Source: an uncultured Bacilli bacterium (GTDB lineage Bacteria; Bacillota_I; Bacilli_A; RF39; UBA660). Taken from it: a DNA stretch of 64,000 bases. The translations under genes and the position numbers were made by a program. The notes beneath the pieces were generated by a model. It saw only the letters and a program-made list of their open reading frames with translations. It ran no database searches and had not been told where the DNA came from. The stretch is from contig CANQQV010000001.1 in the NCBI GenBank assembly GCA_947626095.1, positions 1-64,000 of the forward strand, in the 5' to 3' direction. This document shows, one piece after another, positions 1,770-45,922 of this stretch; position 1 is the first letter of the stretch, and every line of letters begins with the position of its first letter.

Positions 1770-1781
1770 ACTTTATTTATT

Positions 1782-3447: not shown

Positions 3448-3483
3448 GAAGATTTTCCTTTATAGGATATCTTCTTTTATTTT
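3446..3483 (+). terminator. intrinsic terminator in the 5' leader of the uracil permease gene (attenuator)
   Basis: AAGAAGATTTTCCT-TTAT-AGGATATCTTCTT stem followed by a T-rich tract, between promoter and RBS. Confidence 0.7.
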
Positions 3484-3514
3484 GCTTTCTACATTCAATT
3501 AGAGGAGGAGTTTT

Positions 3515-4930: not shown

Positions 4931-4961
4931 AAAGTAATTAATATAAAACTGGAGGAATATT

Positions 4962-5588: not shown

Positions 5589-5611
5589 GTCGATTTATAT
5601 CGACTTTTTTT
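5586..5611. terminator. terminator between convergent upp and asnB
   Basis: AGTCGA-TTTATA-TCGACT stem followed by a T tract. Confidence 0.75.
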
Positions 5612-5628
5612 AATGAAAAAAGAAGCTT

Positions 5629-7449: not shown

Positions 7450-7454
7450 CGTAA

Positions 7455-11667: not shown

Positions 11668-11716
11668 TGTTTATTATATCTAAATTTACTATTTATTTCC
11701 ATAGAAAAAAGAGAAC

Positions 11717-12664
11717 TTAATTCTCTTTATCATCTATTTTCTTTTTACTCTTTTTCTTCTTTTCACTAATTGTTTGTTCTTCCATAATAGGGGCACTATT
11801 AGCTGATTCTTCTTTTAATTTATTAATTTCCATAACCCCTGTTTTTTCCATCTCTTCATGATAATTCATCGCCATACCTATAACTAAGATATATGAAAGT
11901 AAATAAGTCCATAACATCAAAATAACGATATTAGCTAAACTACCATAAAAGACTGAATAATTAGCATAATGAGCTATGTAATATGAATAAGCTGCTGTAA
12001 CAAGTATCCAACCAACTGTTGTAAACACTGCTCCCCCATTTACATTACGACTAGGTATCTTTTTATCTGGTGCCATCGTATATATCGTCTTAATAAAGAA
12101 GAAGATAATCACCCATGATAATGGTCCACTCATAAAATGTAATGTTTTAACTACCATCGAGGTTGTCTCGGCATCTAAATTAAAATAATGAATTAAACTA
12201 ATTAAACTTTGTCCAAGTAAGGGGAAAACTAAAATAAATAGAAATAATATAACGATTACTAACTCCATAATAATAGCTTTTAATCTTCTTTTAAAGAATC
12301 CAGAATCTTGAATATTATAAATTGTATTCGAAGCCACTATAATCGAAGCCATTCCATTACTTGCGATAAAATAACCAACACCTAAAGTAATAAAGAAAGT
12401 TGGTGTTATCTTTGTTGCTGTAAGAATTGGTGTTACTAAGTTAGCTACATCTCCACCCAAAACATTAGATATTAACGATTGTACTATATCATTAGATAAT
12501 TTCAAGTAAGAACAAGCATACCCAATAAGTGTAATAGTTGGTACCATTGATAAGAAGATAAAAAATGCTATTTGTCCCGGTAAGATAAGCATCTCTGGAC
12601 GCCAGAATGCTTCCCAAAACCTTTGAAAAAAGTTTTTACGATTCTTTCTTTTCATCTGAACCAT
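11717..12664 (-). CDS. YihY/virulence factor BrkB family membrane protein
   Basis: AFFIFLSMVP, six TM segments, YSVFYGSLANIVILMLW; start may be the later MKRK ATG. Confidence 0.88.
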   Translation of the reverse strand: MVQMKRKNRKNFFQRFWEAFWRPEMLILPGQIAFFIFLSMVPTITLIGYACSYLKLSNDIVQSLISNVLGGDVANLVTPILTATKITPTFFITLGVGYFIASNGMASIIVASNTIYNIQDSGFFKRRLKAIIMELVIVILFLFILVFPLLGQSLISLIHYFNLDAETTSMVVKTLHFMSGPLSWVIIFFFIKTIYTMAPDKKIPSRNVNGGAVFTTVGWILVTAAYSYYIAHYANYSVFYGSLANIVILMLWTYLLSYILVIGMAMNYHEEMEKTGVMEINKLKEESANSAPIMEEQTISEKKKKSKKKIDDKEN

Positions 12665-14693
12665 CTTCTAATTCTTCTTTTTTCGTACGCATATCTTCTA
12701 CTGACTCATTAATTGAATCTTCAATTGTCTTCATATCATTTAATATCATACTATAACCAATAGCAGCCCCATACTCAAATGGTAAATTCTTAAATTCTTT
12801 ATATAATTTTCTTATATAACTAACTACTTGTTTCTCTTGATAACCAACTAAGTATATTAAGAACTCATTACCATCAGTACGCATAATATCAGTATTATCA
12901 AGTTGCGTCTTAATTAAAACATTAGCAGCTGCTTTAATCTGCGCATCACCTTGTTCATAACCTAATGTATCATTAATCTTTTGTACTTCATTTAAATCAA
13001 TAATAATTGTTGCTTGTGGATAAATTGTATTCTTATTCCAACTATTAATATTTTCATTTAAATAATTACGATTCTTTAATGAAGTTAATTGATCAATATA
13101 CTTCATCTTATCTTCTTTTTTAATCTTCTTAGCTATCTTAATCTTCTTCGTTGAACGATAAGCTAAATAAAGAATAATAATAAAGACAATAATAACAATA
13201 ACTGAGTATTTAGCCACTTGACCTAATACTGTACCAGAATTCATCGTATAAGTATGATTATAAGTACCTTTAACTATCACTTCATTAGGATCTAAAGTCT
13301 CAATATATCTATTAAATAATAAACTAAAGATATCATTTTCTCTAACATAAAAATTATATGTATCAGATAATGTATTACTATATCTAACTGTATATTCACT
13401 TAAAATTGATTTCTTATAATAATTATATACTTCACGATCTATTAATAATATCTTTTCATTACGTATAGCTTTCTTTAATTCTTTCTCATTACTATAAGTC
13501 TTTACTTCAACATTACCCATATTAGAAAGATATTTATCTAAAATACTATTAGCACTTACATATACTTCTTCCCCATTTAACGAAGTAATAGCATTAATAA
13601 TTAAAGAATTCTTTTCTGGTGCTACTACTACAAATGATACGTTCATTAATGAATCAATTGCTTGATACTTCGTATCTAAATTATAATAATTATAGAAAAT
13701 ATCTACTTTATTATTAGCAATAGCTTCTGTAAATTTAGCAAAGTTCTTATATTTAACTGGATTTATTTCTGTTTTACTAAAGTCCATAAACCTCGTTAAA
13801 TACTCACTTACTATTCCCCCATAAGAACCACTAATTAATACTTCATATGGACTATTATTAATAAAACCATACGTATATCTCTTAGCTTGCATATTAGCTA
13901 ATTCTTTATCTGAAATAGATAAAGCACTAGTAAATGTTAACAACTCATTTTCATTAATTGATACATTTAGATCTTCTTCTTTATATTCCGCAAAAGTCTT
14001 TTTAATTATATCACTAAAAGTATCATTTTCTTTAACTCTAAAAACCATATATTTATTTAAATCACTAATATGATAATCAATATTATAATTAGATGTTAAA
14101 ATAGACGTTAAATTCTCTTCTAATGGTAAGACAGCATAATCAATATCTTCATTAGTTTCTAACGCATTAAGTAAATCCGTTGATGTCTCATAAGGATTTA
14201 CTACCACATTAGATGTATCTACTAAGTACTTAGATACTAAACTTTCATCTGGTGCTAAAACACCTAAACGACTATCAGATAATTGCGCCAAAGAACTAAT
14301 ATTTTGTTTCTCTTTACTTACTACTACATAATGTTCTGTATAAAACAAAACATCACTATCTAAAAGATCATAAGTGATCATAAAAGCACGATCACTTACT
14401 TCTTCACCAACATTATAAGTAATTGGATTTATATCAATTCCATATTTTTCTTCAACATATCCTACATAATCAAAGAAAACCCCAGTTCCATTTTTCCCAA
14501 ATACATCAAGATTAACTGGTACATAAACACTATGAACTTGATTAATATTCTGCGTAATCCATTCCTTTTCTTCTACTGTTAATTTATCTTCATCATTTAA
14601 TATCTTATAAGTTATAATTCCTAAAGTAGCAATAGCTATAATACTTATTAAGACGATAAAAATGACTTTCTTATACGATTTACCTTTTTTCAT
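12636..14693 (-). CDS. membrane sensor with extracellular solute-binding-like domains and degenerate GGDEF domain
   Basis: Two TM segments; DQLTSLKNR, INDTLGYEQGD, and RTDGNEF in place of RxGGDEF. Confidence 0.8.
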   Translation of the reverse strand: MKKGKSYKKVIFIVLISIIAIATLGIITYKILNDEDKLTVEEKEWITQNINQVHSVYVPVNLDVFGKNGTGVFFDYVGYVEEKYGIDINPITYNVGEEVSDRAFMITYDLLDSDVLFYTEHYVVVSKEKQNISSLAQLSDSRLGVLAPDESLVSKYLVDTSNVVVNPYETSTDLLNALETNEDIDYAVLPLEENLTSILTSNYNIDYHISDLNKYMVFRVKENDTFSDIIKKTFAEYKEEDLNVSINENELLTFTSALSISDKELANMQAKRYTYGFINNSPYEVLISGSYGGIVSEYLTRFMDFSKTEINPVKYKNFAKFTEAIANNKVDIFYNYYNLDTKYQAIDSLMNVSFVVVAPEKNSLIINAITSLNGEEVYVSANSILDKYLSNMGNVEVKTYSNEKELKKAIRNEKILLIDREVYNYYKKSILSEYTVRYSNTLSDTYNFYVRENDIFSLLFNRYIETLDPNEVIVKGTYNHTYTMNSGTVLGQVAKYSVIVIIVFIIILYLAYRSTKKIKIAKKIKKEDKMKYIDQLTSLKNRNYLNENINSWNKNTIYPQATIIIDLNEVQKINDTLGYEQGDAQIKAAANVLIKTQLDNTDIMRTDGNEFLIYLVGYQEKQVVSYIRKLYKEFKNLPFEYGAAIGYSMILNDMKTIEDSINESVEDMRTKKEELEDGSDEKKES

Positions 14694-20403: not shown

Positions 20404-20691
20404 TTATAGATATTCCATTATTGCAACATTTTTTTCTAACTTAACAATTAAATCTTCATTATCATATTTAGAAAAAATATCATCAAATGTCTTTGTATCT
20501 ATTAAAAACATATTATAAAAACTAGCAAAAGCATCAACATAATTTGTAATACCTAAATTCTTTAAGCAATTAATATTAGTTGTAACTACTTCTTCATTCT
20601 TCTTAAGCTCTTCAATAACTACTTCTGGAATATTTCTATTTAATACCTCTACTATATCTTCAGGAAAACCTAAATTAACTAAATAATTCAT
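20404..20691 (-). CDS. hypothetical protein
   Basis: 95-aa ORF coupled (TAATG) to the upstream gene, with SD GGAGG. Confidence 0.75.
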   Translation of the reverse strand: MNYLVNLGFPEDIVEVLNRNIPEVVIEELKKNEEVVTTNINCLKNLGITNYVDAFASFYNMFLIDTKTFDDIFSKYDNEDLIVKLEKNVAIMEYL

Positions 20692-23099
20692 TAAGCTTCG
20701 CCTCCATCTTTAGTAGATTCACTACCATAAGCATCTATTATTTGTTTTAATACATCCTCAGTTTGTCTTAAATTATATAATACAGCACTTAGTATTAATT
20801 CTTTTTCCTTACCTTCTACTGTATCTCTACCTTTAACTAATACAGCTAAGTTTCTTTCTACTTTATTCTTAGAAACAGGAACATCATTAACTAAATATGT
20901 ATATTCTCCATAAGCTACAACATTTAACTTATTATTAAATATTTCTTTCAAACTATTTAACATTTCTTTTTCTTGATCAGTTAACTCTATATCTTTAAAT
21001 AATGTCGTACTATCATAATAGTTATCTAATACTTCAACCATTTCTTTAGAACCATCTAATAAAGTTGCTATTGAAGCATTAACTTCTTTTCTATCACGAG
21101 GCATATACTCATTAACATCTTGATGATAAGTTCTATAGAACTTAAGTCCATCAACAATATTTTTATTTATAATACCTTCTTCTTCATCTTCAAAAATAGA
21201 TTCATTATTAGCACTAGCATATCTAGTTCTAGCAATTAAAGCATCTACACGATTAGAAAGAACTTCTGGAGTTTCAAATAAATCTTCTAATTTAGCTTCA
21301 ACTAAATCATCAATATCAAATAATAATTCTTTAGAATTTTTAAAGAAAGTTCCTAAAGCATATTTTCCATTTTTTCTTTGAATAGAAAGTAAATAATTCT
21401 TTAATACTTCAACATCTTCTTTAACATTATCTGACTTATATAATACAGCTTGATAATTTCTTAAATCTTTTTCATCAATTTCAAAGCCATTATCAACTAA
21501 AATCTTAATATTATCATTGTACTTACTTACATCTAAAGCTATTAAATGAACATTTTCATCACTAAGTTTATCATTAGTTTCTTCAATAGTCTTAATACGT
21601 TCTTCTAATACTGAATATTCTACTTCTAAACCACTATCTTCAGTTTCTATTAATTCTTTTAATTTGTGTTCATTAATTCCTTTAGCTCTTAACAAAGTAA
21701 CTTTCTTATTTAATTCTTTATCAACTAAATAACTATGATTATTTCTTACTTCATATATTACTTTATCATCTACATTTATACTTCTAAGTATTTCATAATT
21801 TTCTTCAACATGTTTAATATCACAATTACTTAATTCTTCTAATAATTCTTTATTATCTTCTACATATTCTAAATTTAATCCTATATTCTCTAAATTACTC
21901 TTAAGTTCCTTATAAGGGTCTTCCTCTTTTGGTTCTTCTGCAACAACAGTAACCTCTGGTTCTTCTTCCTTAGGTTCTTCATCTATAGCAGTTTCTTCTT
22001 CTAATTCAGATTCTGTTGGATTTTCTTCCTTTACTTCACTAGATAAAACAATTGGTTCTTCTTGTAAATTAAATTCTGGTAATTTAGCTTCTTCATTAGT
22101 TATATCTTGAAATTCTTCTTCAGTATTTTCTTGCTCTTCACTTCTATTTAAACTAGTAATATCTAATATCTGTGTAGGTTCGTCATCTATTACAGAATTT
22201 AAATTTTGATAAGTTTGTGAAGTTAAATCTTCGTTTTCAGGCTCCTCATTTAAATATGCCTCTAAATTAACTTCGCTATTATCTTCTTTAACTGGTTCTT
22301 GAACTACTTCTACTTCCTCTTGTGGTTCTTCAGTTTTTTCTTCAACAACTGGTGGAACAATAACTATTTCAGAATCATTATCCTTTTCTTCTTTAGTTTC
22401 TTCAACTTCTTCTTGTGGTTTACTAAAATCTGGATGTTCTCTATCATCGTAAGTTTCATCAAATTCAATTAAACCATCTTCTGGGAATAAAATAACTTTT
22501 GCTAAAGCAGAAACTTCTCTTGAGTTAAATACACCAAATCTTTCAATTATATCTTTAGCATCTTTAATCGTTAAAGATTCTCTTTCTGCTGCATTAGCAG
22601 ATAAACTTTGTTCTAATAAACCAATCAAATCATTTCTATCTTCTTTAGCTGATTCTAATCTTTCATTTAAATTATTTAATTCATTACTAAGGGTTTCTCT
22701 GGCATGTTTAGCATCTTCAATCGCTCTACCAGCTTTATCAATCTTTTCATTTAATTCATCACAATATAAAGGAGCTTTTTCATTAATAGTATCTAACATA
22801 TTAGTAATATCTAGATTAATACCTATTTCATTTAAAGCACTAAAAGTATCATTACCAATTCCAGTAAATGTTGAACAGAACGCCTCTTTTTGCGTCATAA
22901 AAATAGAAAGTTGACTTTCCATTTCAACCTTAGATAATTCATTATTAGATTGCTTAGATGTTTCTTCTGCAATATTGTCTTCTACTCTCTGAATATCGCC
23001 TTTAATTTGTGAAATAATAACATTGTTTTCACCCTTAAGATTATATAATCTTTCCAACAATTCAGCTAAGTCTTGTGTCATTTTCATCACACTACACAC
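20691..23099 (-). CDS. large acidic coiled-coil hypothetical protein
   Basis: 802-aa ORF with N-terminal coiled coil and central Glu/Pro-rich linker. Confidence 0.75.
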   Translation of the reverse strand: MCSVMKMTQDLAELLERLYNLKGENNVIISQIKGDIQRVEDNIAEETSKQSNNELSKVEMESQLSIFMTQKEAFCSTFTGIGNDTFSALNEIGINLDITNMLDTINEKAPLYCDELNEKIDKAGRAIEDAKHARETLSNELNNLNERLESAKEDRNDLIGLLEQSLSANAAERESLTIKDAKDIIERFGVFNSREVSALAKVILFPEDGLIEFDETYDDREHPDFSKPQEEVEETKEEKDNDSEIVIVPPVVEEKTEEPQEEVEVVQEPVKEDNSEVNLEAYLNEEPENEDLTSQTYQNLNSVIDDEPTQILDITSLNRSEEQENTEEEFQDITNEEAKLPEFNLQEEPIVLSSEVKEENPTESELEEETAIDEEPKEEEPEVTVVAEEPKEEDPYKELKSNLENIGLNLEYVEDNKELLEELSNCDIKHVEENYEILRSINVDDKVIYEVRNNHSYLVDKELNKKVTLLRAKGINEHKLKELIETEDSGLEVEYSVLEERIKTIEETNDKLSDENVHLIALDVSKYNDNIKILVDNGFEIDEKDLRNYQAVLYKSDNVKEDVEVLKNYLLSIQRKNGKYALGTFFKNSKELLFDIDDLVEAKLEDLFETPEVLSNRVDALIARTRYASANNESIFEDEEEGIINKNIVDGLKFYRTYHQDVNEYMPRDRKEVNASIATLLDGSKEMVEVLDNYYDSTTLFKDIELTDQEKEMLNSLKEIFNNKLNVVAYGEYTYLVNDVPVSKNKVERNLAVLVKGRDTVEGKEKELILSAVLYNLRQTEDVLKQIIDAYGSESTKDGGEA

Positions 23100-26136: not shown

Positions 26137-29100
26137 TTATGGACTAGGTACCATTTGCGTATAAACATATACTTTTCCTCCAATGTACTCAGATCCTAAT
26201 ATAATTTTTTTATTTCCTTCGCCAGCATTTAATAACCACTCTACCTCTGAATGATGTGAACTTATATCACCTACATATGCCCCTTTGGTTCCTGGTGGAC
26301 ATGATGTTACTTCAATAATTGGCGAAAACCTTGTAAATCCTTGGCCCAATACTGGCGTTGAACTGGCAAAGCCATTATCTCCTATTTCATAAACACCGCC
26401 ACCTAAAGCGTTTATAGCATCAGATAATTTCTTGCCAGTTAATTGAACACCGTTTGCATCTTTTAGTGCATCACTTACTGTTCCAGCGGCAAGCCAGCTA
26501 ATATCATCAATTCCTCTGTACATTAGTGTTGTTTCATTAAGGTCTGGAGCAGATTCTGATAGATATTTGTATAAAGCGCTAATTTGATCTATATATTCTT
26601 GTTTTATGTGTGAAAAATCTCCAGTTCTTAGTGCATTATTCAGTGCTGTATAATCATTACCAGTAAAAAGTTTCATTCCATCTCTTGCAATAGGATCAGC
26701 TCCCGTCCAAGCATTATAGCTATTTTTAAACACGGTCTCTTTACATACTCTATTCGCATTTTCCCATGAACCACTACCTGGACAAAAATCTGGATGAGCA
26801 CTTATAACGTCCTGTGTCGCATCCCTTGCTTTAATTCCTAATTTTGAATAAAAATCGTTAATCCTATCAGTTATTGCTTTTATTCCTGAAGACGAAGTCA
26901 TACTAACTGCAGTATCAGTAAATGGGAGAGTTTTTAAGTAATATTGAGCCAATGTTCCTCTGGCTGTTACAAATTGGATTGAATTTTCACCATATTTAGA
27001 AGCAATATTTTTCAAAATTTCATCAGCTTTTTTGCCATATTGTCTTAAAGCGGCTTCACTATCGATTACGGCATCGGCTGGTAAACCTGTTTTTTTATAT
27101 TTTATATATCCTTGAGGATATGAATCTATTTGAGCTTCATATGCGTGAACTTCTGGAGCATTAATACCAGCAATCAATTTTTTTGGCTTTGGTGGTTGAG
27201 AGACTTGTTTAATGTAATTATCCACAGCATTATTTAAGTCAGTCTTACTATGATAGGCAAAAGTAACATTGTCTGTGTTATAAATTGATTGGTTTAGTAC
27301 CATAATTTTTTCTGATAAACCTTTTATTTGCGGATCTACATTTGGATTTCTATAAAGTTCATACCAAGAATGATTTCTAAACTCTTTTACGTCAAATGAA
27401 GCTTGAGTGTGGAATTGTACTTCAAGATCTATACCTTCCGGACTAGTAAATGTAACATTTAATCCACTATATGATTTATTACTTCCCCAAGCATTATTCA
27501 TATATCTTATTTGATAGCCATTTTGTTTTATTTTTGCTATTTTCGACAAAACTATATCTTCATAATTACCAGAATCACAAATTAAAGTATATCTTAAACT
27601 ATCATTTACTTGATCTTCAGCAAAAGTAAGGTCACAATGCAAATTATTTACTAACCTGTATAACTTGCTTTCAATACTTCCTTGTGATTTAAATTTTGCA
27701 TTAAGACCAATTAAGTGAGCAGAATCATCTTGTAAACTTTCCATTAAACTAGTTACAGCTGGCTCTATTTGAACTGCTTTAGCTCCAATCTCTTGCGCTT
27801 TTTGTTGAATTGCAGCACGAAGATTTGGATCTATTTCATCCGCTTGTTTTAAACTATTTATATATTCATCTAAAGTCATTCCCTTTTTATGAATATTTTC
27901 CAATAAGTCTACTTGCAACTGATGTTGACGTTTAAGATCCATATTTTTTTGAGCCGCTAATGTATCAGATGGATCTATGCTATTTAATTGTTTTGTATAA
28001 CTATCTTGTAAATCCGCAAGTTCTTTAGCCATAGCTGCACTTTTATCTAATTCTTTTGCAGCATATTCAAATTGTCCTAGAATCTCATCTGATGTATCAA
28101 CTGTTCCTGCTGCCACTTGTTTTGGAACGGCGTTTGCTGAATCATCTATGACATCTGCAATTTGTTTTGTAGCTATACCTGCTGTCTCACCAGATACCAT
28201 TATGGCCGAGGTATCTGCGACTCCTATTGAAGTTGTTGCTTGTTTTGCAGTAGCAGCTGTTGTACCTGAAACTACTGACCTCGCTGAAACATCACCTAAT
28301 GCTTTTATCTTATCAGCTATCAACTTACCATAATGTGCTACATTGTATTCATATGTTCCAATAGTTATATCTGAAAAGCCTTTTGTTCCTCCGAAGTGGA
28401 ACTTTACTTCTTTATCAAGATCTTCAATTAATTGCATTGTTGTGGCATCAACAGAATCACTAGCTGATTTAAATGATAACGTACCATCCGTAGCAAATGG
28501 ATCTGCTACTTGTTGCGTCGCTGTTAAAGCTTTTCTTAATTCTGGTACTTCTGTTAAGAAGCTTATTGCTCCTGCACTTAAGGCCTGAGTTCCTACTGCT
28601 CCCCATCCACCATTATATTCAAATAATGCTTGATATTTTTCAGTAAATGATAATTCATCCCATGTCTTATCATTAACTTTTACGCCATTTTCATCATAAT
28701 TTACTAAATACATTATTTGATCTAAATTATTTTCTGTCGGATTATATAACATTTGCATTAATGGATTTATTAATGCTCCTGATCCGCCATCTACTGTATC
28801 TAATGCAACATGGGATCCGGTTGTTATGAGTTGTCCTTTAAATCCAGCTAAACCTGGAAATTTTAGTGCATTAATTTCTGCTCCTAGGAACATTTCTGCT
28901 CCTTCCCATAATCCCATTGCTGTTCCATATGTTAATCCATCTGATAATGTCGCCCCATCCGCCCATGCATTTTGCGTATTCTTACCAAAACCTGCTGTTG
29001 CTGCAATAACTCCTGATGTTATTGCTTGTTGTGTTATATTTACAGTTGCTACATTACCAACATTTAATGTTGCTAATACCCCTGCACTTGTTCCAGCAGT

Positions 29101-30168
29101 TGTTGCAGCACCAGTTCCAGCTGCTCCAGCTCCCGCGGCTGCTCCACCTATTCCACATGTAGCTAAAGTTAGTAATATTATTCCACCTATATATCCTACT
29201 CCATCAGCTATTTTATATGCTGCGCCTGTCGATTTAAATGGTTCATAAGAATTCTCATCTAACCATTGTCCAACAACATTGTTTTGATGAAATGAATCAA
29301 AAGCATCTGTTACATATTTAGTACTTACAAAATCCATTGTTCCTTGCCATGCTTTCTTTGTTACAGATTGCCAATCTTCATTTCCACTTATTTTTCCACC
29401 TAGCCATTGAATTCCATCGACTATTCCATATATCGGTGTTGCTGCTGCTTGACCTACTATTGATGCGGTATCCACCAAAGCTTCACCGAATTCTCCAACT
29501 CCTTGTACTAATGCTACTGCTGTATTAGCGATAGATGCTCCAGTCTTTTTTAAAGTTTCTATTGGATGCGTTACTGCGTTCCATGCTGACTTACCAACTT
29601 CTTGGGCTTTTCCTGTAATCCAGTTAAAAGCCGACTTTGCTTTGGTAGTTGCCTTTGCAGCTGTATTGCTTATCGCATCTCCTACATCATTTACTACTTT
29701 ACCAATTGTATTTTTAGCTGATTCAAAAAGGTTTGCAACAGCTGACGTCGCTTTGGTTACTACACTTGCCGTAGAATCTTTTATTTCGGAGTCATCCACT
29801 ATTGAATCGCTTACCTTATCTCCAATTAACGCTCCTATTCCTGCTCCTATAGGTCCTAATACCGATCCTAAAAGAGCTCCTTCTAATGTCCCTATTGCTT
29901 TTAAACCTGCGCTTGCTCGATTTTCTACTTTTCTAAAATCTTCAGCCGCTGACGCTATTTGGTCAGATGTTTCATGAATACTAAAATTAACATTATCAAT
30001 ATTAACAGTAATATCATGTAAATCTTTACATACATATAATGATATTAAAGGCTCGACATTATTATTAACTATATTTATATCATTTATTATTTGATTCATT
30101 ATAGGTTCTGTATTTGTTAAAGTGTCATACGCTTTATCATATGTTTCGGGATCCATTTTTATCGCCAT
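26137..30168 (-). CDS. polymorphic toxin (putative type VII substrate) with RelA/SpoT-like synthetase and C-terminal ADP-ribosyltransferase domains
   Basis: Helical N-terminus, Gly/Ala hydrophobic region, KSQGSIESK / DSLRY / YSGLN / EVQFHT, then YTALNNALR / YRG / FASST / EVE. Confidence 0.85.
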   Translation of the reverse strand: MAIKMDPETYDKAYDTLTNTEPIMNQIINDINIVNNNVEPLISLYVCKDLHDITVNIDNVNFSIHETSDQIASAAEDFRKVENRASAGLKAIGTLEGALLGSVLGPIGAGIGALIGDKVSDSIVDDSEIKDSTASVVTKATSAVANLFESAKNTIGKVVNDVGDAISNTAAKATTKAKSAFNWITGKAQEVGKSAWNAVTHPIETLKKTGASIANTAVALVQGVGEFGEALVDTASIVGQAAATPIYGIVDGIQWLGGKISGNEDWQSVTKKAWQGTMDFVSTKYVTDAFDSFHQNNVVGQWLDENSYEPFKSTGAAYKIADGVGYIGGIILLTLATCGIGGAAAGAGAAGTGAATTAGTSAGVLATLNVGNVATVNITQQAITSGVIAATAGFGKNTQNAWADGATLSDGLTYGTAMGLWEGAEMFLGAEINALKFPGLAGFKGQLITTGSHVALDTVDGGSGALINPLMQMLYNPTENNLDQIMYLVNYDENGVKVNDKTWDELSFTEKYQALFEYNGGWGAVGTQALSAGAISFLTEVPELRKALTATQQVADPFATDGTLSFKSASDSVDATTMQLIEDLDKEVKFHFGGTKGFSDITIGTYEYNVAHYGKLIADKIKALGDVSARSVVSGTTAATAKQATTSIGVADTSAIMVSGETAGIATKQIADVIDDSANAVPKQVAAGTVDTSDEILGQFEYAAKELDKSAAMAKELADLQDSYTKQLNSIDPSDTLAAQKNMDLKRQHQLQVDLLENIHKKGMTLDEYINSLKQADEIDPNLRAAIQQKAQEIGAKAVQIEPAVTSLMESLQDDSAHLIGLNAKFKSQGSIESKLYRLVNNLHCDLTFAEDQVNDSLRYTLICDSGNYEDIVLSKIAKIKQNGYQIRYMNNAWGSNKSYSGLNVTFTSPEGIDLEVQFHTQASFDVKEFRNHSWYELYRNPNVDPQIKGLSEKIMVLNQSIYNTDNVTFAYHSKTDLNNAVDNYIKQVSQPPKPKKLIAGINAPEVHAYEAQIDSYPQGYIKYKKTGLPADAVIDSEAALRQYGKKADEILKNIASKYGENSIQFVTARGTLAQYYLKTLPFTDTAVSMTSSSGIKAITDRINDFYSKLGIKARDATQDVISAHPDFCPGSGSWENANRVCKETVFKNSYNAWTGADPIARDGMKLFTGNDYTALNNALRTGDFSHIKQEYIDQISALYKYLSESAPDLNETTLMYRGIDDISWLAAGTVSDALKDANGVQLTGKKLSDAINALGGGVYEIGDNGFASSTPVLGQGFTRFSPIIEVTSCPPGTKGAYVGDISSHHSEVEWLLNAGEGNKKIILGSEYIGGKVYVYTQMVPSP

Positions 30169-30205: not shown

Positions 30206-30493
30206 TTAATTATTTTGACACTCTTGACGTCTCTTTAATTCTTTTTCCTGTTGATTTCTTATTTCCTGAGCTTTAGTTCTTATTGTATTAGATATTGCAT
30301 ATAATCGGTTTCGATATGTTTGTAATTTGTTTATATTATCAGAAATTTTTTTACTTATTTTTTTAGAACTGTTAGAACTATTTTTACTGATTTCTGATAA
30401 AGCTGTAATATAGTCATTTATTACTTCAGTTATTTCTTTAGCTGTTGTTTCTAATTTTGCTGCTAATTCATTTTCTCTACTAACGTTTATCAT
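30206..30493 (-). CDS. small helical protein, putative toxin secretion partner
   Basis: 95 aa, coiled-coil character, between WXG100 genes and toxin. Confidence 0.6.
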   Translation of the reverse strand: MINVSRENELAAKLETTAKEITEVINDYITALSEISKNSSNSSKKISKKISDNINKLQTYRNRLYAISNTIRTKAQEIRNQQEKELKRRQECQNN

Positions 30494-30567: not shown

Positions 30568-30861
30568 TTATACTTCTTCTACTTTTGATTTAGCTGTTGT
30601 TTCAAGTTTTTCATATGCAGGAGCTACAGTATCAGTAAGATATTTTGCACAATCTGTTATAGCTTGTTCAAATGCAGGTCCTCTTGATTTTATGTTATTA
30701 AATGCATCAACTATTTGGTTTGATGCATCAGAATGATAATTATCAGAAACTGAATTAATCAAATCGCCAAATTCTTCAAGTAATTCACCTACTTTTGATG
30801 CTGAGTTTTGTAAACTTGATGCTGCTAAATTACATTCTCCACTTGTAAATTTAAATGCCAT
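30568..30861 (-). CDS. WXG100-like protein (degenerate motif)
   Basis: 97 aa helical hairpin pattern, NYHSDAS at the WxG position, tandem with a WXG100 gene. Confidence 0.7.
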   Translation of the reverse strand: MAFKFTSGECNLAASSLQNSASKVGELLEEFGDLINSVSDNYHSDASNQIVDAFNNIKSRGPAFEQAITDCAKYLTDTVAPAYEKLETTAKSKVEEV

Positions 30862-30876: not shown

Positions 30877-31149
30877 CTATAATTCGCTTTCTAGATTTTG
30901 ATAATCTGTTCCAACTGCATTGATTAGTTCACCAAAGTCTCCCATTATTTTGGCAAATTTTTCAAAATCAGCTTTAAAACTTTCAACATTTTGTGTATAT
31001 CTAGTTGCTGACTCTCCGGTCCAACTATTTTTTAAATCATCTATTATTCCATATATGGTACTTATTTCTGTTTGAAATTCTGCTGCCTTTGCACTTATTT
31101 GAGAACCATCGGAAATTAATTTAGCTGGATCTTGGATTTCAATATTCAT
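30877..31149 (-). CDS. WXG100-family type VII secretion target
   Basis: 90 aa, central LKNSWTGESA, C-terminal YQNLE. Confidence 0.88.
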   Translation of the reverse strand: MNIEIQDPAKLISDGSQISAKAAEFQTEISTIYGIIDDLKNSWTGESATRYTQNVESFKADFEKFAKIMGDFGELINAVGTDYQNLESEL

Positions 31150-31309
31150 ATATCATCTTCCTTTTCTATCATTACTACCATTATAACATTAATTATTTTA
31201 TTAGTATAGTTACATGACACTTTTATTTACAACAATAACAAAATATCTTCGTAATACAAAAAGTTGTAAGATAATCTTACAACTTTTATTAATTATTTAT
31301 TTAGTAATA

Positions 31310-32299
31310 TCATAAGTTACAACCAACATCTTTATGATTTAAATCGCCAAATAATGCATAAGTTAAACATTTCAATCCACCCTTACAAAATTCAGCATAT
31401 TCACATTCCTTACAATCGTCTGGTATATCATCATCACGTAAACTTTTTAAAACAGAATTATTCATATATAACTGATACATATTTTCTTTTAATAAATTAC
31501 CTACTACAATTGGCATTCTTCTACAAGGAACTAAATCACCATTTTCTATAACAGTTAACAATGAAACCCCAGCTGTACAATGATACGGCAAATCATTCGT
31601 CATCTGAAATTGCAACGCTCTATACATAGCTATATTCGTTTGACTTTTTTTCAATTTTAAATTTTGTCTTTCTTTCTCCATTATTGCTAAAAATTCTCTT
31701 GTTTGTTCTAAACCCATAACAAAATCTTTATCATATTCTGTTCCTAAAGGTATAAATCTGTCAGACCAAACATTATCTACTTTATATTTTTCGGCATATT
31801 TTATTACTTTAGGAAATTCTTTATAATTAAGTCTTGTAACTGTAAAAGAAACAGAGACAAAAATATTATATTTTTTTAAACATTTTATTGCTTCTGAAAC
31901 CTTTTTATAGACACCTTTCCCACGAACATAATCATTAGTTTTTCTTCCACCTTCTAAACTAACTTGAACATATTCCGGATTATACTCACTTATTCGTTTT
32001 GCTATTTTATCATCAATCAACGTCCCATTAGTAAGAATTGAAAAACTATATAAGTCACTATCTTTTTTAAATTCATCTAAAATTTTAAAAAAGAAAGGAC
32101 AGCATAAAGGTTCTCCACCAGTTAGATTTATATGTCCTTTCATATTAAGTTTCTTCAAAAGTTCTCTATATTGATTAAGAATTATCAATAATTCTTCATA
32201 CTTTAATTGTATAGGTTTATGGTCTTTTTGGTAACAATGTTTACATTTTAAATTACATACTTCACTTAAATGCCACTGCAAAACAAATTTTTTTACCAA
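31310..32299 (-). CDS. radical SAM/SPASM domain protein
   Basis: CNLKCKHC, TGGEP, TNG, SPASM C..GDLVPC..CKEC..CKGG..C; start reassigned to TTG at 32299, 8 nt after GGAGGT. Confidence 0.92.
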   Translation of the reverse strand: MVKKFVLQWHLSEVCNLKCKHCYQKDHKPIQLKYEELLIILNQYRELLKKLNMKGHINLTGGEPLCCPFFFKILDEFKKDSDLYSFSILTNGTLIDDKIAKRISEYNPEYVQVSLEGGRKTNDYVRGKGVYKKVSEAIKCLKKYNIFVSVSFTVTRLNYKEFPKVIKYAEKYKVDNVWSDRFIPLGTEYDKDFVMGLEQTREFLAIMEKERQNLKLKKSQTNIAMYRALQFQMTNDLPYHCTAGVSLLTVIENGDLVPCRRMPIVVGNLLKENMYQLYMNNSVLKSLRDDDIPDDCKECEYAEFCKGGLKCLTYALFGDLNHKDVGCNL

Positions 32300-34395
32300 G
32301 AGCCTCCACCTCCACAAGATGAACAACCTCCACCACAGGAAGAACAACCTCCACCACAAGATGAAGACGATGAAGATGAGGTAGAATGAATTGAATTTGA
32401 TAAATTATTAAAAGAATAATAATTATAATAATCAAAATTACCTTTATCGAGTCTAGAAATTGAAATGTTTTTAAATTTACCTATCCAAATTTTAGAACAC
32501 CCTAAAACATAGGCATAAGGTAAAATATCATAGAAATATTTAGGATTATCTTTAACTAATTTTTTAACTTGTTCTTCGCTTACTGTTTCTAGATAATTTG
32601 CAAATCCATCTATTTCAGCAATTATTTGTTCACCATATTTATTTTTTCTTTTCATTAAAATAATAAAAATAAATATAACAATTAAAGAAATAAATGCTAA
32701 TAAGTAAATAAAATTAAACTTAGGATCTAAATCTTCAAAAACACAAAACGCATAACTAAAATAACATACCCCAATAAAGAACATTACACTTACTATAGCC
32801 ATATTTATATAAGAAGCAGTATCATTTATTTTATCATCTAATTCTTTTTGCAGATTTTCTATTAATTTGTTAAAGTCCATATGAAGAGTTCTACCTTCTG
32901 ATAAGGTAATAACATCACTATTAGCAAATAACTGATTATATATTATTTCTTCATTTGAAGTCATTTCTGGTTTACCGCGAAATGCTTTTTCTTTTATTTG
33001 ATTTGCTTTTTCATCAAGTTCCTCTTGCGTATAATTATTAATAGTATCTGAATTAATTCGAATATATCCTTTTTCAACTAATTGTTTAGTATTAGCATAA
33101 AAATCATCAAAATCTTCATTAATTACACACGAAGTAGAATTACCTTCAAATAAACTATTCATCAATTTTTCATCAGCACTATTATCTGCTTCTTTTAATT
33201 TCGTAATTTTTATTTTTCTATTAATAGCTTTATTAATATCAGTTGAACATAAATTAGTTATTTTTATTTCTTTTTTATCTTCTAACTCATCTATTTCTAT
33301 AAATCCTTTACTTGCTAACTCTATTATAATAGAAATAACTAATCTAATTCCACTATCACTTTTATAAATATAACCAATATCTGCTGAATCATATCCTTCT
33401 GGTGGATAAAACTTAATAGCTTTTTTATCATAACGTTTATTATAATCCTTACCATATATTAACCATTTAATAAAAGCAATTATCGCAAAAATTATTACCA
33501 ACAAACATAACGTTAAAGATAAATAACCATAATTACTCTTAGCCCCTACAAAATATCCTTCAGGTAACTCAATATCAACCGTAAGTGAGTTTTCCAAATC
33601 ATAATCAGATGATAAATTGGCATACAAAGTATTTCCTGAAACATAGTAATCAACATAAGGTGTTATATCCTCACTTCTATATTTATCTGCAAAGAAAGTT
33701 ATTGAATTTTCATCAATAGTTTTTGGCATTGTTATTTCCAAAGAAGCATCATTAATTCTTGTTCCCCAATAATCGCCATATGCATGAAAAATAAATTCAT
33801 CAAATCCTTCAAATGGATCTTCACCCATATCATATTGATAAGTAATAGTATAAGTTTTTAACCCCGTATCTAAAGTTTCATCAGGTGATCCTATTTTAAT
33901 TCTATCTTTGCCATTTACTGTATCAATACTATATTTTTCATCTTCTGCTTTTAAATTTTGAACCTCAGAGATACGTGAAGTAGTATTCCCATCTTTTCCC
34001 GTATATTCCAACAAACCAGGTACAAATTTATATATACCATGATGTCCTGTTTCATAAAAATCAACAGTTATCATTTCTGTAACATCAACTACATTATTTT
34101 CATTTACATTTAATTTAACTTTATATGTTTCTATTGTAAAACCATCAGCAACACTAGAAGAATCTGAAGAATATCTAGAGCTAAGATTTTTTAAATAAGA
34201 TATTCCAGCTATAAATAGAATAATCCAGCCAAATATCATTAAAACTAAACTAAAATTTTTATGCTTTATAATTTTAGACTTTTGTTTTGCTAATAAATGA
34301 GTAAATAACCAAATAATAAATATTGGAACCATTATAAAAAGAGTTAAATATAATACCGCTCTCAAACAACCAGTAATACCATTTAAAATATCCAT
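32293..34395 (-). CDS. DUF2207-family membrane protein with Cys/Gly/Ser repeat tail
   Basis: VTEMITVDF..HHGIY, IGSPD, FYPPEG, ILPYAYVLG; ends SSSCGGGCSSCGGGCSSCGGGGSW. Confidence 0.85.
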   Translation of the reverse strand: MDILNGITGCLRAVLYLTLFIMVPIFIIWLFTHLLAKQKSKIIKHKNFSLVLMIFGWIILFIAGISYLKNLSSRYSSDSSSVADGFTIETYKVKLNVNENNVVDVTEMITVDFYETGHHGIYKFVPGLLEYTGKDGNTTSRISEVQNLKAEDEKYSIDTVNGKDRIKIGSPDETLDTGLKTYTITYQYDMGEDPFEGFDEFIFHAYGDYWGTRINDASLEITMPKTIDENSITFFADKYRSEDITPYVDYYVSGNTLYANLSSDYDLENSLTVDIELPEGYFVGAKSNYGYLSLTLCLLVIIFAIIAFIKWLIYGKDYNKRYDKKAIKFYPPEGYDSADIGYIYKSDSGIRLVISIIIELASKGFIEIDELEDKKEIKITNLCSTDINKAINRKIKITKLKEADNSADEKLMNSLFEGNSTSCVINEDFDDFYANTKQLVEKGYIRINSDTINNYTQEELDEKANQIKEKAFRGKPEMTSNEEIIYNQLFANSDVITLSEGRTLHMDFNKLIENLQKELDDKINDTASYINMAIVSVMFFIGVCYFSYAFCVFEDLDPKFNFIYLLAFISLIVIFIFIILMKRKNKYGEQIIAEIDGFANYLETVSEEQVKKLVKDNPKYFYDILPYAYVLGCSKIWIGKFKNISISRLDKGNFDYYNYYSFNNLSNSIHSTSSSSSSSCGGGCSSCGGGCSSCGGGGSW

Positions 34396-41264: not shown

Positions 41265-42248
41265 ATGGGTGTTATAACAAAAAGACAATTAACAGCTTTA
41301 CTAACTGGCACTTTAATAGCTGCTAATACTTTTTCTATGTCTACTCACTACTCTAATCTACATCTTAAAAACGCTTACCAATTAACTTCAACAACTGTAT
41401 ATGCTTCATCATATGATTATGCAAACTATCAAGATTTAATGACTGAAACTAACATTCAAGTTCCAATCTATAATGCCATGGTTCCTCAAGGTTTAACCAA
41501 AGTAAACGACAACTTTCTAATGAGTTCATATGATTATAGCAAAACAAGTCCATCAACTATCTATATATATGATAATAATGGCAATCTAGTAAATGAATGT
41601 CCTTTAGATAATAAATCTCATGTTGGTGGTATTTCATACGATCAAAAAAATGATTTAATATGGGTTGCAAGTAGTAGCGGCTATATTAATTCCTATCCAT
41701 GTTCTTCTATCTTCAATTCTTCACAAGAGACTAAATACCAAAATACTTTTAATGTTGGTGAAGGATGTAAAAATTATATTTATCCATGGAAAAATGCCAT
41801 ATCATATTTATCTGTTGATAACAATTATCTATACGTAGGTAGTTTCTCTTTATATAAAAATGGCTTAGTAAAAAAATATTTGATCGAAAACAAAGATGGT
41901 GATATTAATTTATCTTTAGTTAATACTTTTAAAGTTCCAACTAAAGTTCAAGGTTTAACTATCTATCATAAAAATGACCAAGACTACTTAATCCTTAGTC
42001 GATCTTTTGGTGAAAATAATCCATCTATTCTACAAATATATAAATATCAGGAAGACATAGATGATTATACTAATCCTCAAATAAAGAGCGTATGCTATAA
42101 AACAGATGCAATGATGGAACAAATAATTATCGATAACGACTATCTATATGCTGTATTTGAATCATCAGCTTATCCATATCGTTATAGTCCATCAAGCGCT
42201 GATCATCTTCAAAAAACCGATATGTCTTTAGTCTTACTACCTAAATAA
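41265..42248 (+). CDS. secreted beta-propeller-like protein
   Basis: Signal peptide, VPQGL, SHVGGI, KVQGL blade-like motifs. Confidence 0.65.
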   Translation: MGVITKRQLTALLTGTLIAANTFSMSTHYSNLHLKNAYQLTSTTVYASSYDYANYQDLMTETNIQVPIYNAMVPQGLTKVNDNFLMSSYDYSKTSPSTIYIYDNNGNLVNECPLDNKSHVGGISYDQKNDLIWVASSSGYINSYPCSSIFNSSQETKYQNTFNVGEGCKNYIYPWKNAISYLSVDNNYLYVGSFSLYKNGLVKKYLIENKDGDINLSLVNTFKVPTKVQGLTIYHKNDQDYLILSRSFGENNPSILQIYKYQEDIDDYTNPQIKSVCYKTDAMMEQIIIDNDYLYAVFESSAYPYRYSPSSADHLQKTDMSLVLLPK

Positions 42249-43859
42249 TACCTTTACTTCATAATATACTATATATCTTTTAGTTCCCTTAGTATCAAAT
42301 CCTCTTTTAAATTCATAATTATCATTCACTTGTTTATTAAAATAATTTAAATAAATATCTAATATTATTTTACTATCTACTTTATCTACTTCTATTCTCT
42401 TAAGTAATAAACTAATTACATTCTCTAAAATATTATCTATCTTAACTTTAGCTTCTATTACTTCTTTTAATTTAATAATACTTCTATCTTCTTTATTTAA
42501 CTCATCTATCTTTTGTTCTAATAACTTTACCTTTTCATTAAATTCATTATTTTTCTTTTTAAATTCTCTATCACTTATAAGCTCATTTATCTTTAAATCT
42601 AACAACTTATCTTTCTTTATATTTATTCTATTTATTTCCTTTAATATGTCTTTATCTTTCTTACTATCTCTATTTAACTCTTTATAATAATTAACTAAGA
42701 TACTAACAACTTCTTTTAAATTAATATCTAACTTTTTTATTATATCTTTAAATATATAATTAAGTTCTGACTCTCTTATATTAGCTGAATCACAATATTC
42801 TTTACCATATCTTAAATATTCCGAACAAACCCAAGTAACATCTTTATTACTACATCTAAATATTCGCCGATAATATAAAGTCTTATGCTTCTTACAATAT
42901 ATCTTCGAACTATATAAATATTTATTATGATAACTATTTATCTTTTTCTTTCTTGCTTCTAATCTTTGATTAGCTATCTCCCATAACTTATCATCAATAA
43001 TTGGTGGTATTTTTTCTTTGTCTTCATACATTATCCATTCATCTTTTTTAAAGTATTTAATTCTTTTTGTCATATAATCTTCTACTTCTATTTTTTTTCC
43101 ACAATAAAAACCTTTATACTTAGGATTTTCTATCATTCTTGAAATAGTAGCTACTGACCACTTACTACCTTCTCTAGATAATATCTTATCTCTATTTAAT
43201 CTTTTACCTATTTCTGATAATGATAACTTATCTACCACATACCATTCAAATATCTTTCTTACTACTTTAGCTTCTTCATTTATAATAACTAACTTCTTTG
43301 TATTCTTATCTTTTCTATAACCATATAATAAATTATTACCTAGTATTTCTCCTCTTAAAATAGCTCTATTCATCCCAAACTTAACTCTTTCTGATAATCT
43401 TCTTATTTCATCCTGTGCCATTGAAGCCATTATTGTAAGTCTTAATTCTGCATCCGGTAAAGCCGTATTAATATTATCATTAAGAAATAAAACAGCTACC
43501 CCATAAGAAAGTAATTCTCTTGTATATTTAATACTATCTAAGGTATTTCTAGAAAACCTCGATATTTCTTTAGTAACTATTAAATCAAATTTATTCTTTT
43601 TAGCATCTTCTATCATTTTCATAAAGTTATCTCTTTTAATATCACTAGTTCCCGTAATACCTTCATCAATATATCCTGGTATATAAGTCCAATTAGGATT
43701 ATCTTTAATCATTTCTTCAAAATGTTCTTTTTGATTTATTAATGACTTCTTCTGTTCTATATGATTAGTTGAAACTCTCACATAATCAGTTACTCTTAAT
43801 TTAATATTAGTAAGTGAAACTCCCATACTTAATTCTTTACGTACTTGATATAAATCCAT
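42237..43859 (-). CDS. large serine recombinase of element 1
   Basis: YVRVST catalytic Ser, DEGITG, SRFSRN, YGY, Zn-ribbon (CKKH..C..C), coiled coil. Confidence 0.95.
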   Translation of the reverse strand: MDLYQVRKELSMGVSLTNIKLRVTDYVRVSTNHIEQKKSLINQKEHFEEMIKDNPNWTYIPGYIDEGITGTSDIKRDNFMKMIEDAKKNKFDLIVTKEISRFSRNTLDSIKYTRELLSYGVAVLFLNDNINTALPDAELRLTIMASMAQDEIRRLSERVKFGMNRAILRGEILGNNLLYGYRKDKNTKKLVIINEEAKVVRKIFEWYVVDKLSLSEIGKRLNRDKILSREGSKWSVATISRMIENPKYKGFYCGKKIEVEDYMTKRIKYFKKDEWIMYEDKEKIPPIIDDKLWEIANQRLEARKKKINSYHNKYLYSSKIYCKKHKTLYYRRIFRCSNKDVTWVCSEYLRYGKEYCDSANIRESELNYIFKDIIKKLDINLKEVVSILVNYYKELNRDSKKDKDILKEINRINIKKDKLLDLKINELISDREFKKKNNEFNEKVKLLEQKIDELNKEDRSIIKLKEVIEAKVKIDNILENVISLLLKRIEVDKVDSKIILDIYLNYFNKQVNDNYEFKRGFDTKGTKRYIVYYEVKVLFR

Positions 43860-44931: not shown

Positions 44932-45922
44932 TAATATCTTTAACTTTTTTAGGTTTTATTGCTAAGAAACAAATTGTTCCCGCTATACCTACTAAAGCAA
45001 CTCCAATAACAATCTCAACTATTTTAGAAATTAAACTATCATCATCTTCTGAATCAGTAGATTCTTCATCACTACCATCTTTATCTTCAGTATCATCATC
45101 TGTATCATAGTCATAATCATAATCACCATTATCATTGTTATCATCGTCATCTTGTTTATCATCATCTGTAGACGTTTTATCATCAGAGCTGTTATCATTT
45201 TGATTACTACCATTATTTCCTGAATTGTTTGCTGAACTATTATTGTTATTATTTGATCCATTATTAGAACTTCCCGAATTTGAATTATTACCAGAAGATC
45301 CATTATTATTTGAACCACTATTATTACCAGAAGATTGATTATTATTTTTATCATCATCTTTACTATCATCTGGTTTACTATCTTCACCAGGTTTCTTATC
45401 GTCTTTATCTTCTGTTGTACTACTTACTTTAAAAGTAAATGATTTATCTTTACTTTCTGGAGCAACAGTATTTAATTTCCAAGTATTATCTAGAATCATT
45501 AATTTAGTACACTCTAAACTATACTTCACTTCTTTTGTAGTACCATTTTCAAAAATAATGTTACCTATAACTAGTTCTTTATTGATATTTAATAAATTAT
45601 TTTTATTACTAACTCCACCAGTTGTTACTTTAATGTTTATTGTTTTATTTTTCTCATCATGTGTAACATTTTGTGTATATTCTTTTTTAGTTAGTCCACT
45701 ATCTAAGTTAATCTGTTTGTATTTAACGTTACCACTATATTTAAGTGTTATATCAATACCACCAACAAATCCATCTTCAAAATGAATAGAAGTTTTAATG
45801 TTTCCGTTACTAGTCTCATCAAACACCATTTTAGTAGCAGCTTTAACAGAAGTAAGTGAGATAAAGATGCTTATAAGAAGCAATCCAATAGTTGTAATTA
45901 TTCTCTTTTGCATCTTTATCAT
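44918..45922 (-). CDS. cell-surface anchor protein with cohesin-like domain
   Basis: Signal peptide, about 140-aa beta domain (VGGIDITLKYS, IGNIIF), Asn/Ser/Asp linker, C-terminal TM with basic tail. Confidence 0.55.
   Translation of the reverse strand: MIKMQKRIITTIGLLLISIFISLTSVKAATKMVFDETSNGNIKTSIHFEDGFVGGIDITLKYSGNVKYKQINLDSGLTKKEYTQNVTHDEKNKTINIKVTTGGVSNKNNLLNINKELVIGNIIFENGTTKEVKYSLECTKLMILDNTWKLNTVAPESKDKSFTFKVSSTTEDKDDKKPGEDSKPDDSKDDDKNNNQSSGNNSGSNNNGSSGNNSNSGSSNNGSNNNNNSSANNSGNNGSNQNDNSSDDKTSTDDDKQDDDDNNDNGDYDYDYDTDDDTEDKDGSDEESTDSEDDDSLISKIVEIVIGVALVGIAGTICFLAIKPKKVKDIKTDK

Follow-up and report, generated by a model that had tools for sequence, protein, structure and literature searches.

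A WXG100-linked candidate toxin of an uncultured Bacilli bacterium predicted to combine an alarmone synthetase and an ADP-ribosyltransferase

Interbacterial toxins are usually viewed as one vehicle carrying one enzyme, countered by one immunity protein. Does a single polypeptide also deliver two unrelated enzymes, and if so, is the combination more than an accident? The question is raised by a long open reading frame (ORF) in a 64,000-nucleotide stretch of DNA from an uncultured Bacilli bacterium of the RF39 lineage (GenBank assembly GCA_947626095.1, contig CANQQV010000001.1, positions 1 to 64,000), hereafter called the window. A sequence-only reading of the window had proposed that this ORF, here called the toxin, encodes an alarmone-synthetase-like domain followed by an ADP-ribosyltransferase (ART). 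We confirmed the observation, and the interpretation as a dual-enzyme toxin is supported by sequence comparison and structure models. Taken together, the data make it probable that the toxin belongs to an antibacterial cassette of the type VII secretion system b (T7SSb) type, with three small partners, a two-enzyme toxin and a 130-aa immunity protein. Coordinates are given in Table 1.

The first of the two domains resembles the exported alarmone synthetase (EAS) family. Residues 776-937 align with the C-terminal part of the NCBIfam model XopAD/skwp (E 6.5e-26), and phmmer aligned 135 residues with the SaEAS chain 8vx3_A (E 4.6e-9). In this alignment D856 of the toxin faces the alanine of the inactive D121A crystal form of SaEAS. 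An AlphaFold2 (AF2) model of residues 690-985, built with 47 family sequences, has a mean pLDDT of 90.1. Foldseek matched this model to SaEAS 8vx3 (E 5.6e-9) and Tas1 6ox6 (E 4.5e-6), and then to Rel, RelP, RelQ and CapRel at E<=1.1e-3, so that 8vx3 is the best PDB relative by both sequence and fold and Tas1 is next by fold. AF2 and Foldseek thereby place the domain in the SYNTH (pol-beta-like nucleotidyltransferase) fold of the EAS/RelA-SpoT superfamily, and the motif series xxK...K, D...RY, YxGxN, ExQFHT and HxxYE is complete. The toxin retains all 15 columns that are invariant across 47 EAS family members, and the matching residues include K827, K835, D856, R859, Y860, Y900, G902, N904, E916, Q918, H920, T921 and Y936. 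The RelA/SpoT-like domain that had been read at about 27300-27750 is thus borne out by the XopAD and 8vx3 matches, by the predicted fold and by a domain hidden Markov model (HMM) built here.

Two further points of the sequence-only reading concern what this domain would do. The first was that synthetase activity is uncertain, since the usual RxK motif is KxK in the toxin. We reject this argument, as position 825 is variable in the EAS family (R 31, K 7 and other 9 in 47 sequences; R 15, K 13 and N 2 among the 30 closest EAS domains) and a lysine is ordinary here. The second was a likeness to the (p)ppApp-synthetase toxins of the Tas1/Apk type. This stands as far as the fold match to Tas1 is concerned, but calling (p)ppApp from the motifs is unjustified. 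According to the sections of PMC12691689 drawn on here, the EAS family holds enzymes that make (p)ppGpp only (AaEAS, VpEAS), (p)ppApp only (Apk1/Tas1) or both (SaEAS), and the product of the toxin's domain is therefore not callable from sequence.

The second domain forms part of a C-terminal module of 358 aa (residues 986-1343). Pfam ADPrib_exo_Tox (PF03496) matches residues 1162-1316 with 38.8 bits in the whole protein and 41.3 bits in the fragment, against a cut-off of 23.4. The AF2 model of the module has a pLDDT of 91.5 and gave Foldseek matches to C3bot1 (E 3.9e-9) and 8za7 (E 2.4e-8), and also to Certhrax, Plx2a, VIP2 and CDTa; by sequence the best PDB match is 8za7_B (E 0.006). Among 16 aligned sequences R1218, S1269, T1271, E1308 and E1310 are invariant. 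The ExE motif is a mark of arginine-directed ADP-ribosyltransferases. Sequence and model together thus point to a C3/VIP2-like R-S-E ADP-ribosyltransferase that is larger than a bare ART. Its additional part, a helical subdomain, accompanies this ART subtype, as an HMM built here (artN) finds it before the ART also in P0019, P0088, P0045, P0080 and P0059, all without an EAS domain. The VIP2-like R-S-E ART that had been placed at about 26140-26700 is upheld by the PF03496 match above cut-off, the fold and the invariant residues. Hence the structure prediction and HMM search per domain, which had been suggested as a check, matched each region to its fold, and all motifs quoted earlier are found in the 1343-aa translation.

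To see how widespread the tandem is, residues 760-1343 were searched against 5.8 billion proteins. Proteins P0002-P0006 cover 99-100% of this two-domain query at 36-54% identity. A scan of 1.84 billion cluster representatives gave 2758 matches, and the best 150 of these, together with the proteins of the first search, were typed with our own EAS profile and iterated ART profiles. Among the 150 EAS-bearing proteins drawn from this set, 34 carry an ART, arranged as EAS-ART (28), EAS-EAS-ART (3), ART-EAS-ART (2, P0002 and P0007) and ART-EAS (1); the others have EAS alone (95) or 2-4 EAS copies without ART (21). A FastTree phylogeny of 180 EAS domains places the toxin in a 30-member clade with a local support of 97, and 24 of the 30 proteins carry an ART from one of at least two subfamilies, which are intermixed on the tree. 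As for the six members without ART, P0010 is truncated inside the ART module, P0034 is a fragment, P0025 and P0035 end with the EAS domain, and P0024 and P0031 have other tails.

It should be noted that the query held both domains, which may have enriched for ART-bearing proteins, and the proteins with EAS and ART that are scattered outside the clade may well reflect such enrichment. All 30 clade members score at least 89 bits on the EAS domain alone, compared with about 83 bits at the end of the list, so that including the ART in the query has little effect on the figure for the clade. When the EAS domain was used on its own in a word-indexed search, seven proteins were found, too few for a tally. 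A search of genome contigs for related loci found no relative, and the metagenome scan found matches to the EAS part only. Since the related toxins repeat the EAS-ART pairing, it looks like a deliberate double weapon and not an accident. The earlier statement that two warheads in tandem are unusual holds for polymorphic toxins in general, but not within this EAS clade. An assembly chimera is ruled out, as the same two-domain module recurs in no fewer than 10 independent proteins of different provenance.

The relatives also have the layout of polymorphic toxins, with the same N-terminus and EAS domain followed by differing C-terminal ARTs (P0003 vs P0021; P0002 vs P0007). The ART-EAS-ART proteins P0002 and P0007 have almost the same N-termini and EAS domains but last ARTs of different subtypes. 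In P0011, P0013 and P0014 the ART is followed by a third conserved domain, which has about 348 residues and belongs to no known family. Dockerin repeats are found near the N-terminus of P0013 and P0014.

How would such a protein leave the cell? Three small genes of WXG100 type or encoding helical proteins lie upstream of the toxin on the same strand, which is the WXG100/Lap-type partner arrangement of LXG-family T7SSb toxins. The WXG100 link claimed by the sequence-only reading was correct, with the first of these genes scoring above the Pfam WXG100 and TIGR03930 cut-offs. The host genome encodes two EssC proteins above the TIGR03928 cut-off, on contigs C2 and C5 (977.6 and 917.7 bits); neither gene is adjacent to the cassette. 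A PDB sequence search with the toxin N-terminus found nothing meaningful. The central region gave weak glycine-zipper and DUF1269 matches, and an Atlas search with it gave only leads below 0.9, PT-TG being at 0.85. This region is shared with the toxin of L004, one of two related metagenome loci. L004 has an FtsK/SpoIIIE-type gene fragment (22.7 bits, below the cut-off of 24.0) and two DUF4176 genes upstream. These genes and the 49% identity of the central region tie the toxin family to T7SS loci.

The two related loci, L004 and L005, also bear on immunity. Both encode EAS-ART toxins, with EAS domains 43% and 39% identical to that of the toxin and with ARTs that lack the helical subdomain and have marginal similarity to its ART. 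In both loci the toxin gene is followed by a gene for a small protein of no known family (168 aa in L004, 137 aa in L005), then by a gene for an HD_4 protein and then by an ADP-ribosylglycohydrolase (ARH) gene. HD_4 is the hydrolase type of RelA/SpoT enzymes. The HD_4 match reaches 31.6 bits in L004 and 26.8 bits in L005, the latter just below the cut-off of 27.2, and the ARH matches are strong (E 9e-72 and 2e-69, respectively). These loci hold one type of antidote for each enzyme, and no other indirect evidence obtained here speaks as strongly for both domains being active weapons. In L004 the ARH gene of the cassette is immediately followed by a second toxin-like ORF of 748 aa with a C-terminal ART (11580-13823, plus strand).

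In the host genome of the toxin, a small HD_4 frame is found on contig C6 and ARH genes on contigs C5, C3 and C10, none of them next to the toxin. The ARH gene on C5 (within the region 1-7877; L018, L002) encodes 325 aa and lies among small helical ORFs, about 2.7 kb downstream of one of the two EssC genes. The ARHs of L004 and L005 are close relatives of its product, and it might serve as an orphan or trans-acting immunity gene. On C10 (61931-63325; L020, L023) a 488-aa frame encodes a second PF03496 ART, and an ADP-ribosylglycohydrolase gene comes immediately after it; the two make up a separate toxin-immunity pair of this genome.

The gene directly downstream of the toxin encodes the 130-aa candidate immunity protein, which we call ImmA. 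It shares 28% identity over 106 residues with the small protein of L004 (pairwise E 2e-7), and the small proteins of L004 and L005 are similar to each other (E 8e-6); direct comparison of the 130-aa protein with the L005 protein found no similarity. Only the C-terminal half of the family is conserved. The ImmA family thus follows EAS-ART toxins whose ARTs are barely related. We found no ImmA homologues in loci L006-L013 and L024-L027, in which the toxin ends with the EAS domain or another tail and many contigs are short. A role of ImmA as a general EAS immunity protein is therefore unsupported.

We co-folded three chains, the EAS unit, the ART module and the 130-aa protein, with the latter as the scored partner and ipSAE as the score. 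The complex reached a median of 0.82 (runs 0.82, 0.67 and 0.85), and the best of three controls reached 0.23. Of 80 solved complexes 58 reach the calibration mark, as do 2 of 110 mismatched pairs; the calibration is only rough here because of our own alignments and the three chains. At least 71% of the contacts agree between runs, with a pLDDT of at least 72 for the partner. In the two controls with another partner the score fell to 0.00. The control with another ART and the original partner reached 0.23, which is below the mark, so that binding to the EAS unit only is unsupported in that run. The contacts of lowest error lie between residues 12-31 of the small protein and residues 42-44, 63 and 266-277 of the ART module, and the interface list also has the invariant EAS residues K835, D856, Y900, N904 and Y936.

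At the level of a prediction, the complex model supports binding of the 130-aa protein to the two-domain unit. There is a tension between this model, which weights the ART most, and the loci with the small protein, which have the EAS domain and not the ART in common. One reading would be a bivalent ImmA, with the conserved C-terminal core placed on the synthetase and a variable N-terminal arm on the variable ART. This could form part of a wider scheme, in which EAS and ART are a co-evolving two-enzyme module, an alarmone flood and arginine ADP-ribosylation act together, ImmA clamps both active sites, and some loci add a hydrolase and an ARH as back-up. From the models and sequence comparisons we would put this scheme forward as a tentative possibility, and a rather doubtful one.

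From the folds, residue conservation, fusion recurrence and gene contexts obtained here, we infer the following export route, activities, products, targets and mode of immunity for the probable T7SSb-type cassette. The N-terminal helical region and the small partners presumably target the toxin to the EssC machine, and the conserved Gly-rich central region presumably helps delivery. The C-terminal 650 residues are predicted to be two independent, catalytically competent enzymes. The EAS domain would transfer pyrophosphate from ATP onto the 3'-OH group of adenine nucleotides, guanine nucleotides or both, so that (p)ppApp, (p)ppGpp or both would flood the target and its ATP would be drained. The C3/VIP2-like ExE ART would consume NAD+ in modifying target proteins, with arginine as the most likely acceptor. 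The 130-aa protein would shield the producer by binding to the two-domain unit, and further cover may come from the alarmone-hydrolase and ADP-ribosylhydrolase genes that lie elsewhere in its genome.

Several observations weigh against this proposal. LXG (PF04740) does not match residues 1-200 of the toxin at E<=10, nor any of 19 relatives scanned. Apart from an ABC transporter and the radical SAM/SPASM and DUF2207 genes, the wider neighbours encode PcrA, LigA, Tex and a GGDEF protein; being housekeeping or unrelated genes, all of these leave the cassette as an isolated island outside a secretion-system core locus. A single small gene directly follows the toxin, with no HD_4 or ARH gene adjacent. 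Pfam RelA_SpoT (PF04607) has no match in the toxin at E<=10 and scores 21.1 and 17.4 bits, below the 27-bit cut-off, on the homologues P0006 and P0032; the EAS branch is too divergent for this model. The EAS core has decayed in some relatives, with five substitutions in P0014, at positions otherwise invariant, and two in P0009, and the EAS domain is thus not equally constrained everywhere. Among 399 other scored genomes of the class the ART module was found in none and the EAS domain in four. Finally, the host genome is a bin of 1.6 Mb, estimated to be 91% complete with 7.9% contamination.

The toxin might instead be aimed at a eukaryotic host or grazer, the ART acting on a host protein such as actin, the synthetase draining host ATP and the downstream protein protecting the producer before export. 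The nearest solved ART folds do include the host-directed C3, VIP2, CDTa and Certhrax, the XopAD effectors, which are directed at plants, also contain EAS-type domains (PMC3482391), and Bxa is an ART active in both bacterial and host cells (PMC11699363). We nevertheless consider a eukaryotic target unlikely. The partner-toxin-immunity layout and the T7SSb context are typical of interbacterial toxins, and the ARH and HD_4 antidote genes of the related loci fit known antibacterial ART and (p)ppApp systems in the sections of PMC11699363 drawn on here. Moreover, we did not find a component for host-cell binding or translocation, such as a binary-toxin B subunit, in the scanned parts of the window (about 7.5-25.4 kb and 31.3-51.2 kb).

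Alternatively, the ART alone could be the weapon, and the EAS-like domain a catalytically silent 'pre-toxin' scaffold that aids folding, delivery or presentation of the ART tip. An EAS domain that stays constant while two ART subfamilies intermix in the clade is indeed a pre-toxin pattern, and the core residues lost from P0014 and P0009, as well as the unmatched PF04607, would fit a domain without activity. Such a scaffold is quite improbable, as the family-invariant residues, among them the catalytic Asp and the Glu of ExQFHT, are all retained in the toxin, and an HD_4 gene after the toxins of L004 and L005 is sensible only if a pyrophosphorylated nucleotide is made. Single-domain EAS relatives are, in addition, proven toxic synthetases (PMC12691689). 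That the C-terminal domain is an NAD+ glycohydrolase, the pair acting as a double weapon of ATP and NAD+ depletion, has in its favour that effectors with an ART fold and NADase activity exist, but is most improbable given the full R-S-E/ExE transferase signature, the PF03496 match and ARH genes after the related toxins that reverse transferred ADP-ribose and would be useless against NAD+ loss.

Table 1. Coordinates of the toxin, its domains and motifs, and the other cassette genes.
Feature	Toxin residues	Window position	Strand	Evidence or remark
WXG100 family protein, 90 aa, first cassette gene		30877-31149	minus	Pfam WXG100 42.1 bits (cut-off 27.3); TIGR03930 45.0 (cut-off 44.85)
ESAT-6-like small helical protein, 97 aa, candidate co-secretion partner		30568-30861	minus	NCBIfam ESAT6_2 E 2.3e-10, 40.5 bits (below 100-bit cut-off); Pfam WXG100 19.3 bits (below cut-off)
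Small helical protein, 95 aa, no family, candidate Lap-like targeting factor		30206-30493	minus	Weak coiled-coil-type Pfam matches; role inferred from size and position
Toxin ORF		26137-30168	minus	Open frame, 1343 aa
N-terminal helical region, presumed secretion-targeting	1-90	29899-30168	minus	Homologous N-termini in P0002, P0003, P0007, P0021; not LXG by Pfam
Gly/Ala-rich hydrophobic central region, conserved	86-554	28507-29913	minus	49% identity to L004 toxin; possibly membrane insertion/translocation
Alarmone-synthetase unit (helical lead and SYNTH core)	690-985	27214-28101	minus	AF2, Foldseek, phmmer, invariant residues
EAS SYNTH core	786-962	27283-27813		Domain HMM built here
KFKSQGSIESK	825-835	27664-27696		Motif
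NDSLRYT	855-861			EAS motif
YSGLN	900-904			EAS motif
LEVQFHT	915-921			EAS motif
HSWYE	933-937	27358-27372		EAS motif
ART module N-terminal helical subdomain	996-1124	26797-27183	minus	HMM 'artN' built here
ART catalytic domain	1134-1341	26146-26769	minus	Pfam PF03496, AF2, Foldseek, HMM built here
YRG	1217-1219	26512-26520		ART motif, R1218
FASST	1267-1271	26356-26370		ART motif, S1269-S-T1271
EVE	1308-1310	26239-26247		ART motif, E1308-V-E1310
Candidate immunity protein ('ImmA'), 130 aa		25727-26119	minus	No Pfam/NCBIfam family; starts 17 bp downstream of toxin

The toxin gene had been noted as richer in GC than its surroundings, and this was indeed the case (0.353 vs 0.278 for the window). 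Its GC at third codon positions (GC3) is 0.165, within the range of 0.06-0.21 of its neighbours. The excess therefore lies at codon positions 1 and 2 and reflects a Gly/Ala/Thr-rich protein composition, and foreign origin by horizontal acquisition, as a conclusion from the high GC, is ruled out.

Between the 130-aa gene and the next gene, which encodes an ABC transporter ATPase, we did not find any small frame of at least 60 codons. A palindromic hairpin with a 13-bp stem is located between the radical SAM gene and the WXG100 gene (31259-31287). It is likely a bidirectional terminator and would then mark the start of the toxin cassette transcription unit. A promoter scan found 28 candidates against 33.7 expected, which is not above chance.

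Four other regions of the window, all with genes on the minus strand, deserve mention. At 31310-34395 there is a 700-aa DUF2207 membrane protein with a Ser/Cys/Gly tail (…SSSSSSSSCGGGCSSCGGGCSSCGGGGSW), and its gene is overlapped and followed by a radical SAM and SPASM ORF whose N-terminus is oddly rich in Trp, Arg and Leu; the two may work as a maturase pair that modifies the tail. Next to the PcrA helicase gene, 20691-23099 encodes a very acidic protein of 802 aa that is rich in Glu and Asn and has no Pfam family. A large serine recombinase is encoded at 42237-43859, and a 1753-aa M60-like peptidase with FN3 and F5/8 type C domains at 45919-51180.

The clade described here departs from the one-enzyme view by pairing two enzymes, and it extends the EAS family to multi-enzyme effectors. 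If both enzymes are active, the toxin would be a natural system for studying the synergy of two unrelated toxic activities. One could then ask whether a double hit slows the evolution of resistance in prey, and how a single 130-aa protein protects the producer from a two-headed toxin.

That T7SS polymorphic toxins carry RelA/SpoT-like domains was a prediction of 2012 (PMC3482391), and its demonstration followed in 2025 (PMC12691689). The founding EAS is SaEAS, with a crystal form (8vx3) carrying the inactivating D121A substitution (Ahmad et al., mBio 2025, PMC12691689). The same study reported 1,369 EAS candidates, 85 of them with WXG/LXG domains and 69 with XopAD repeats. Proteins with several toxin domains are known as well, namely the giant actinobacterial toxins of the SACTE_5178 type and XopAD with two RelA/SpoT copies (Zhang et al. 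2012, PMC3482391), and the phage polyvalent proteins with many effector domains per polypeptide (Iyer et al. 2017, PMC5512222). Like the toxin they join several unrelated enzymatic domains in one polypeptide, and their repertoires include RelA/SpoT and ART domains. A T7SS alarmone synthetase that is regularly followed by an ART, and a three-gene antidote set, are not described in the sections of these accounts drawn on here. The term 'ADP-ribosyl' has no occurrence in the main text of PMC12691689. In full-text searches of the literature we found no description of an EAS-ART fusion, a dual-toxin LXG protein or the combined antidote set, although such proteins may be listed in the supplements of PMC12691689 (S1-S4) and in the supplement and figures of PMC3482391. 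T7SS-linked EAS toxins and ART toxins with ARH and binder immunity are thus known, and their regular fusion is apparently undescribed.

The closest known systems are the WXG/LXG-linked EAS toxins. LXG-linked AaEAS is toxic and makes (p)ppGpp, and SaEAS makes both types of alarmone (PMC12691689). AaEAS and the toxin share the SYNTH family, the T7SS-type organization with a targeting-factor gene before and a small immunity gene after (both of them candidates in the case of the toxin), and a helical stretch of about 100 residues before the SYNTH core. Unlike AaEAS, which ends with the synthetase in the account of PMC12691689, the toxin has an internal synthetase followed by the ART module, and unlike the LXG-linked EAS proteins its N-terminus is unmatched by the LXG Pfam model.

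On the ART side, the nearest counterparts are the Listeria Lmo0066 ART-ARH pair (PDB 8za7), in which an ARH neutralises an arginine-type ART toxin that is both the best PDB sequence match and a Foldseek match of the toxin's ART, and Bxa/BAH/Bsi of Bacteroides stercoris, in which an arginine-type ART is neutralised by an ARH and a small binding protein (PMC11699363). Both are single-warhead toxins; in the window no ARH gene adjoins the toxin. On the synthetase side, Apk1/Tas1 of the type VI secretion system and Apk2 of MuF phage have the same fold as the toxin's EAS domain. They differ from the toxin in using another delivery route and a single enzyme, and their (p)ppApp specificity is not transferable to it. 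Apk2 is neutralised by a hydrolase together with a non-enzymatic binder (PMC11699363), a combination that resembles the HD_4 and ImmA genes of L004 and L005.

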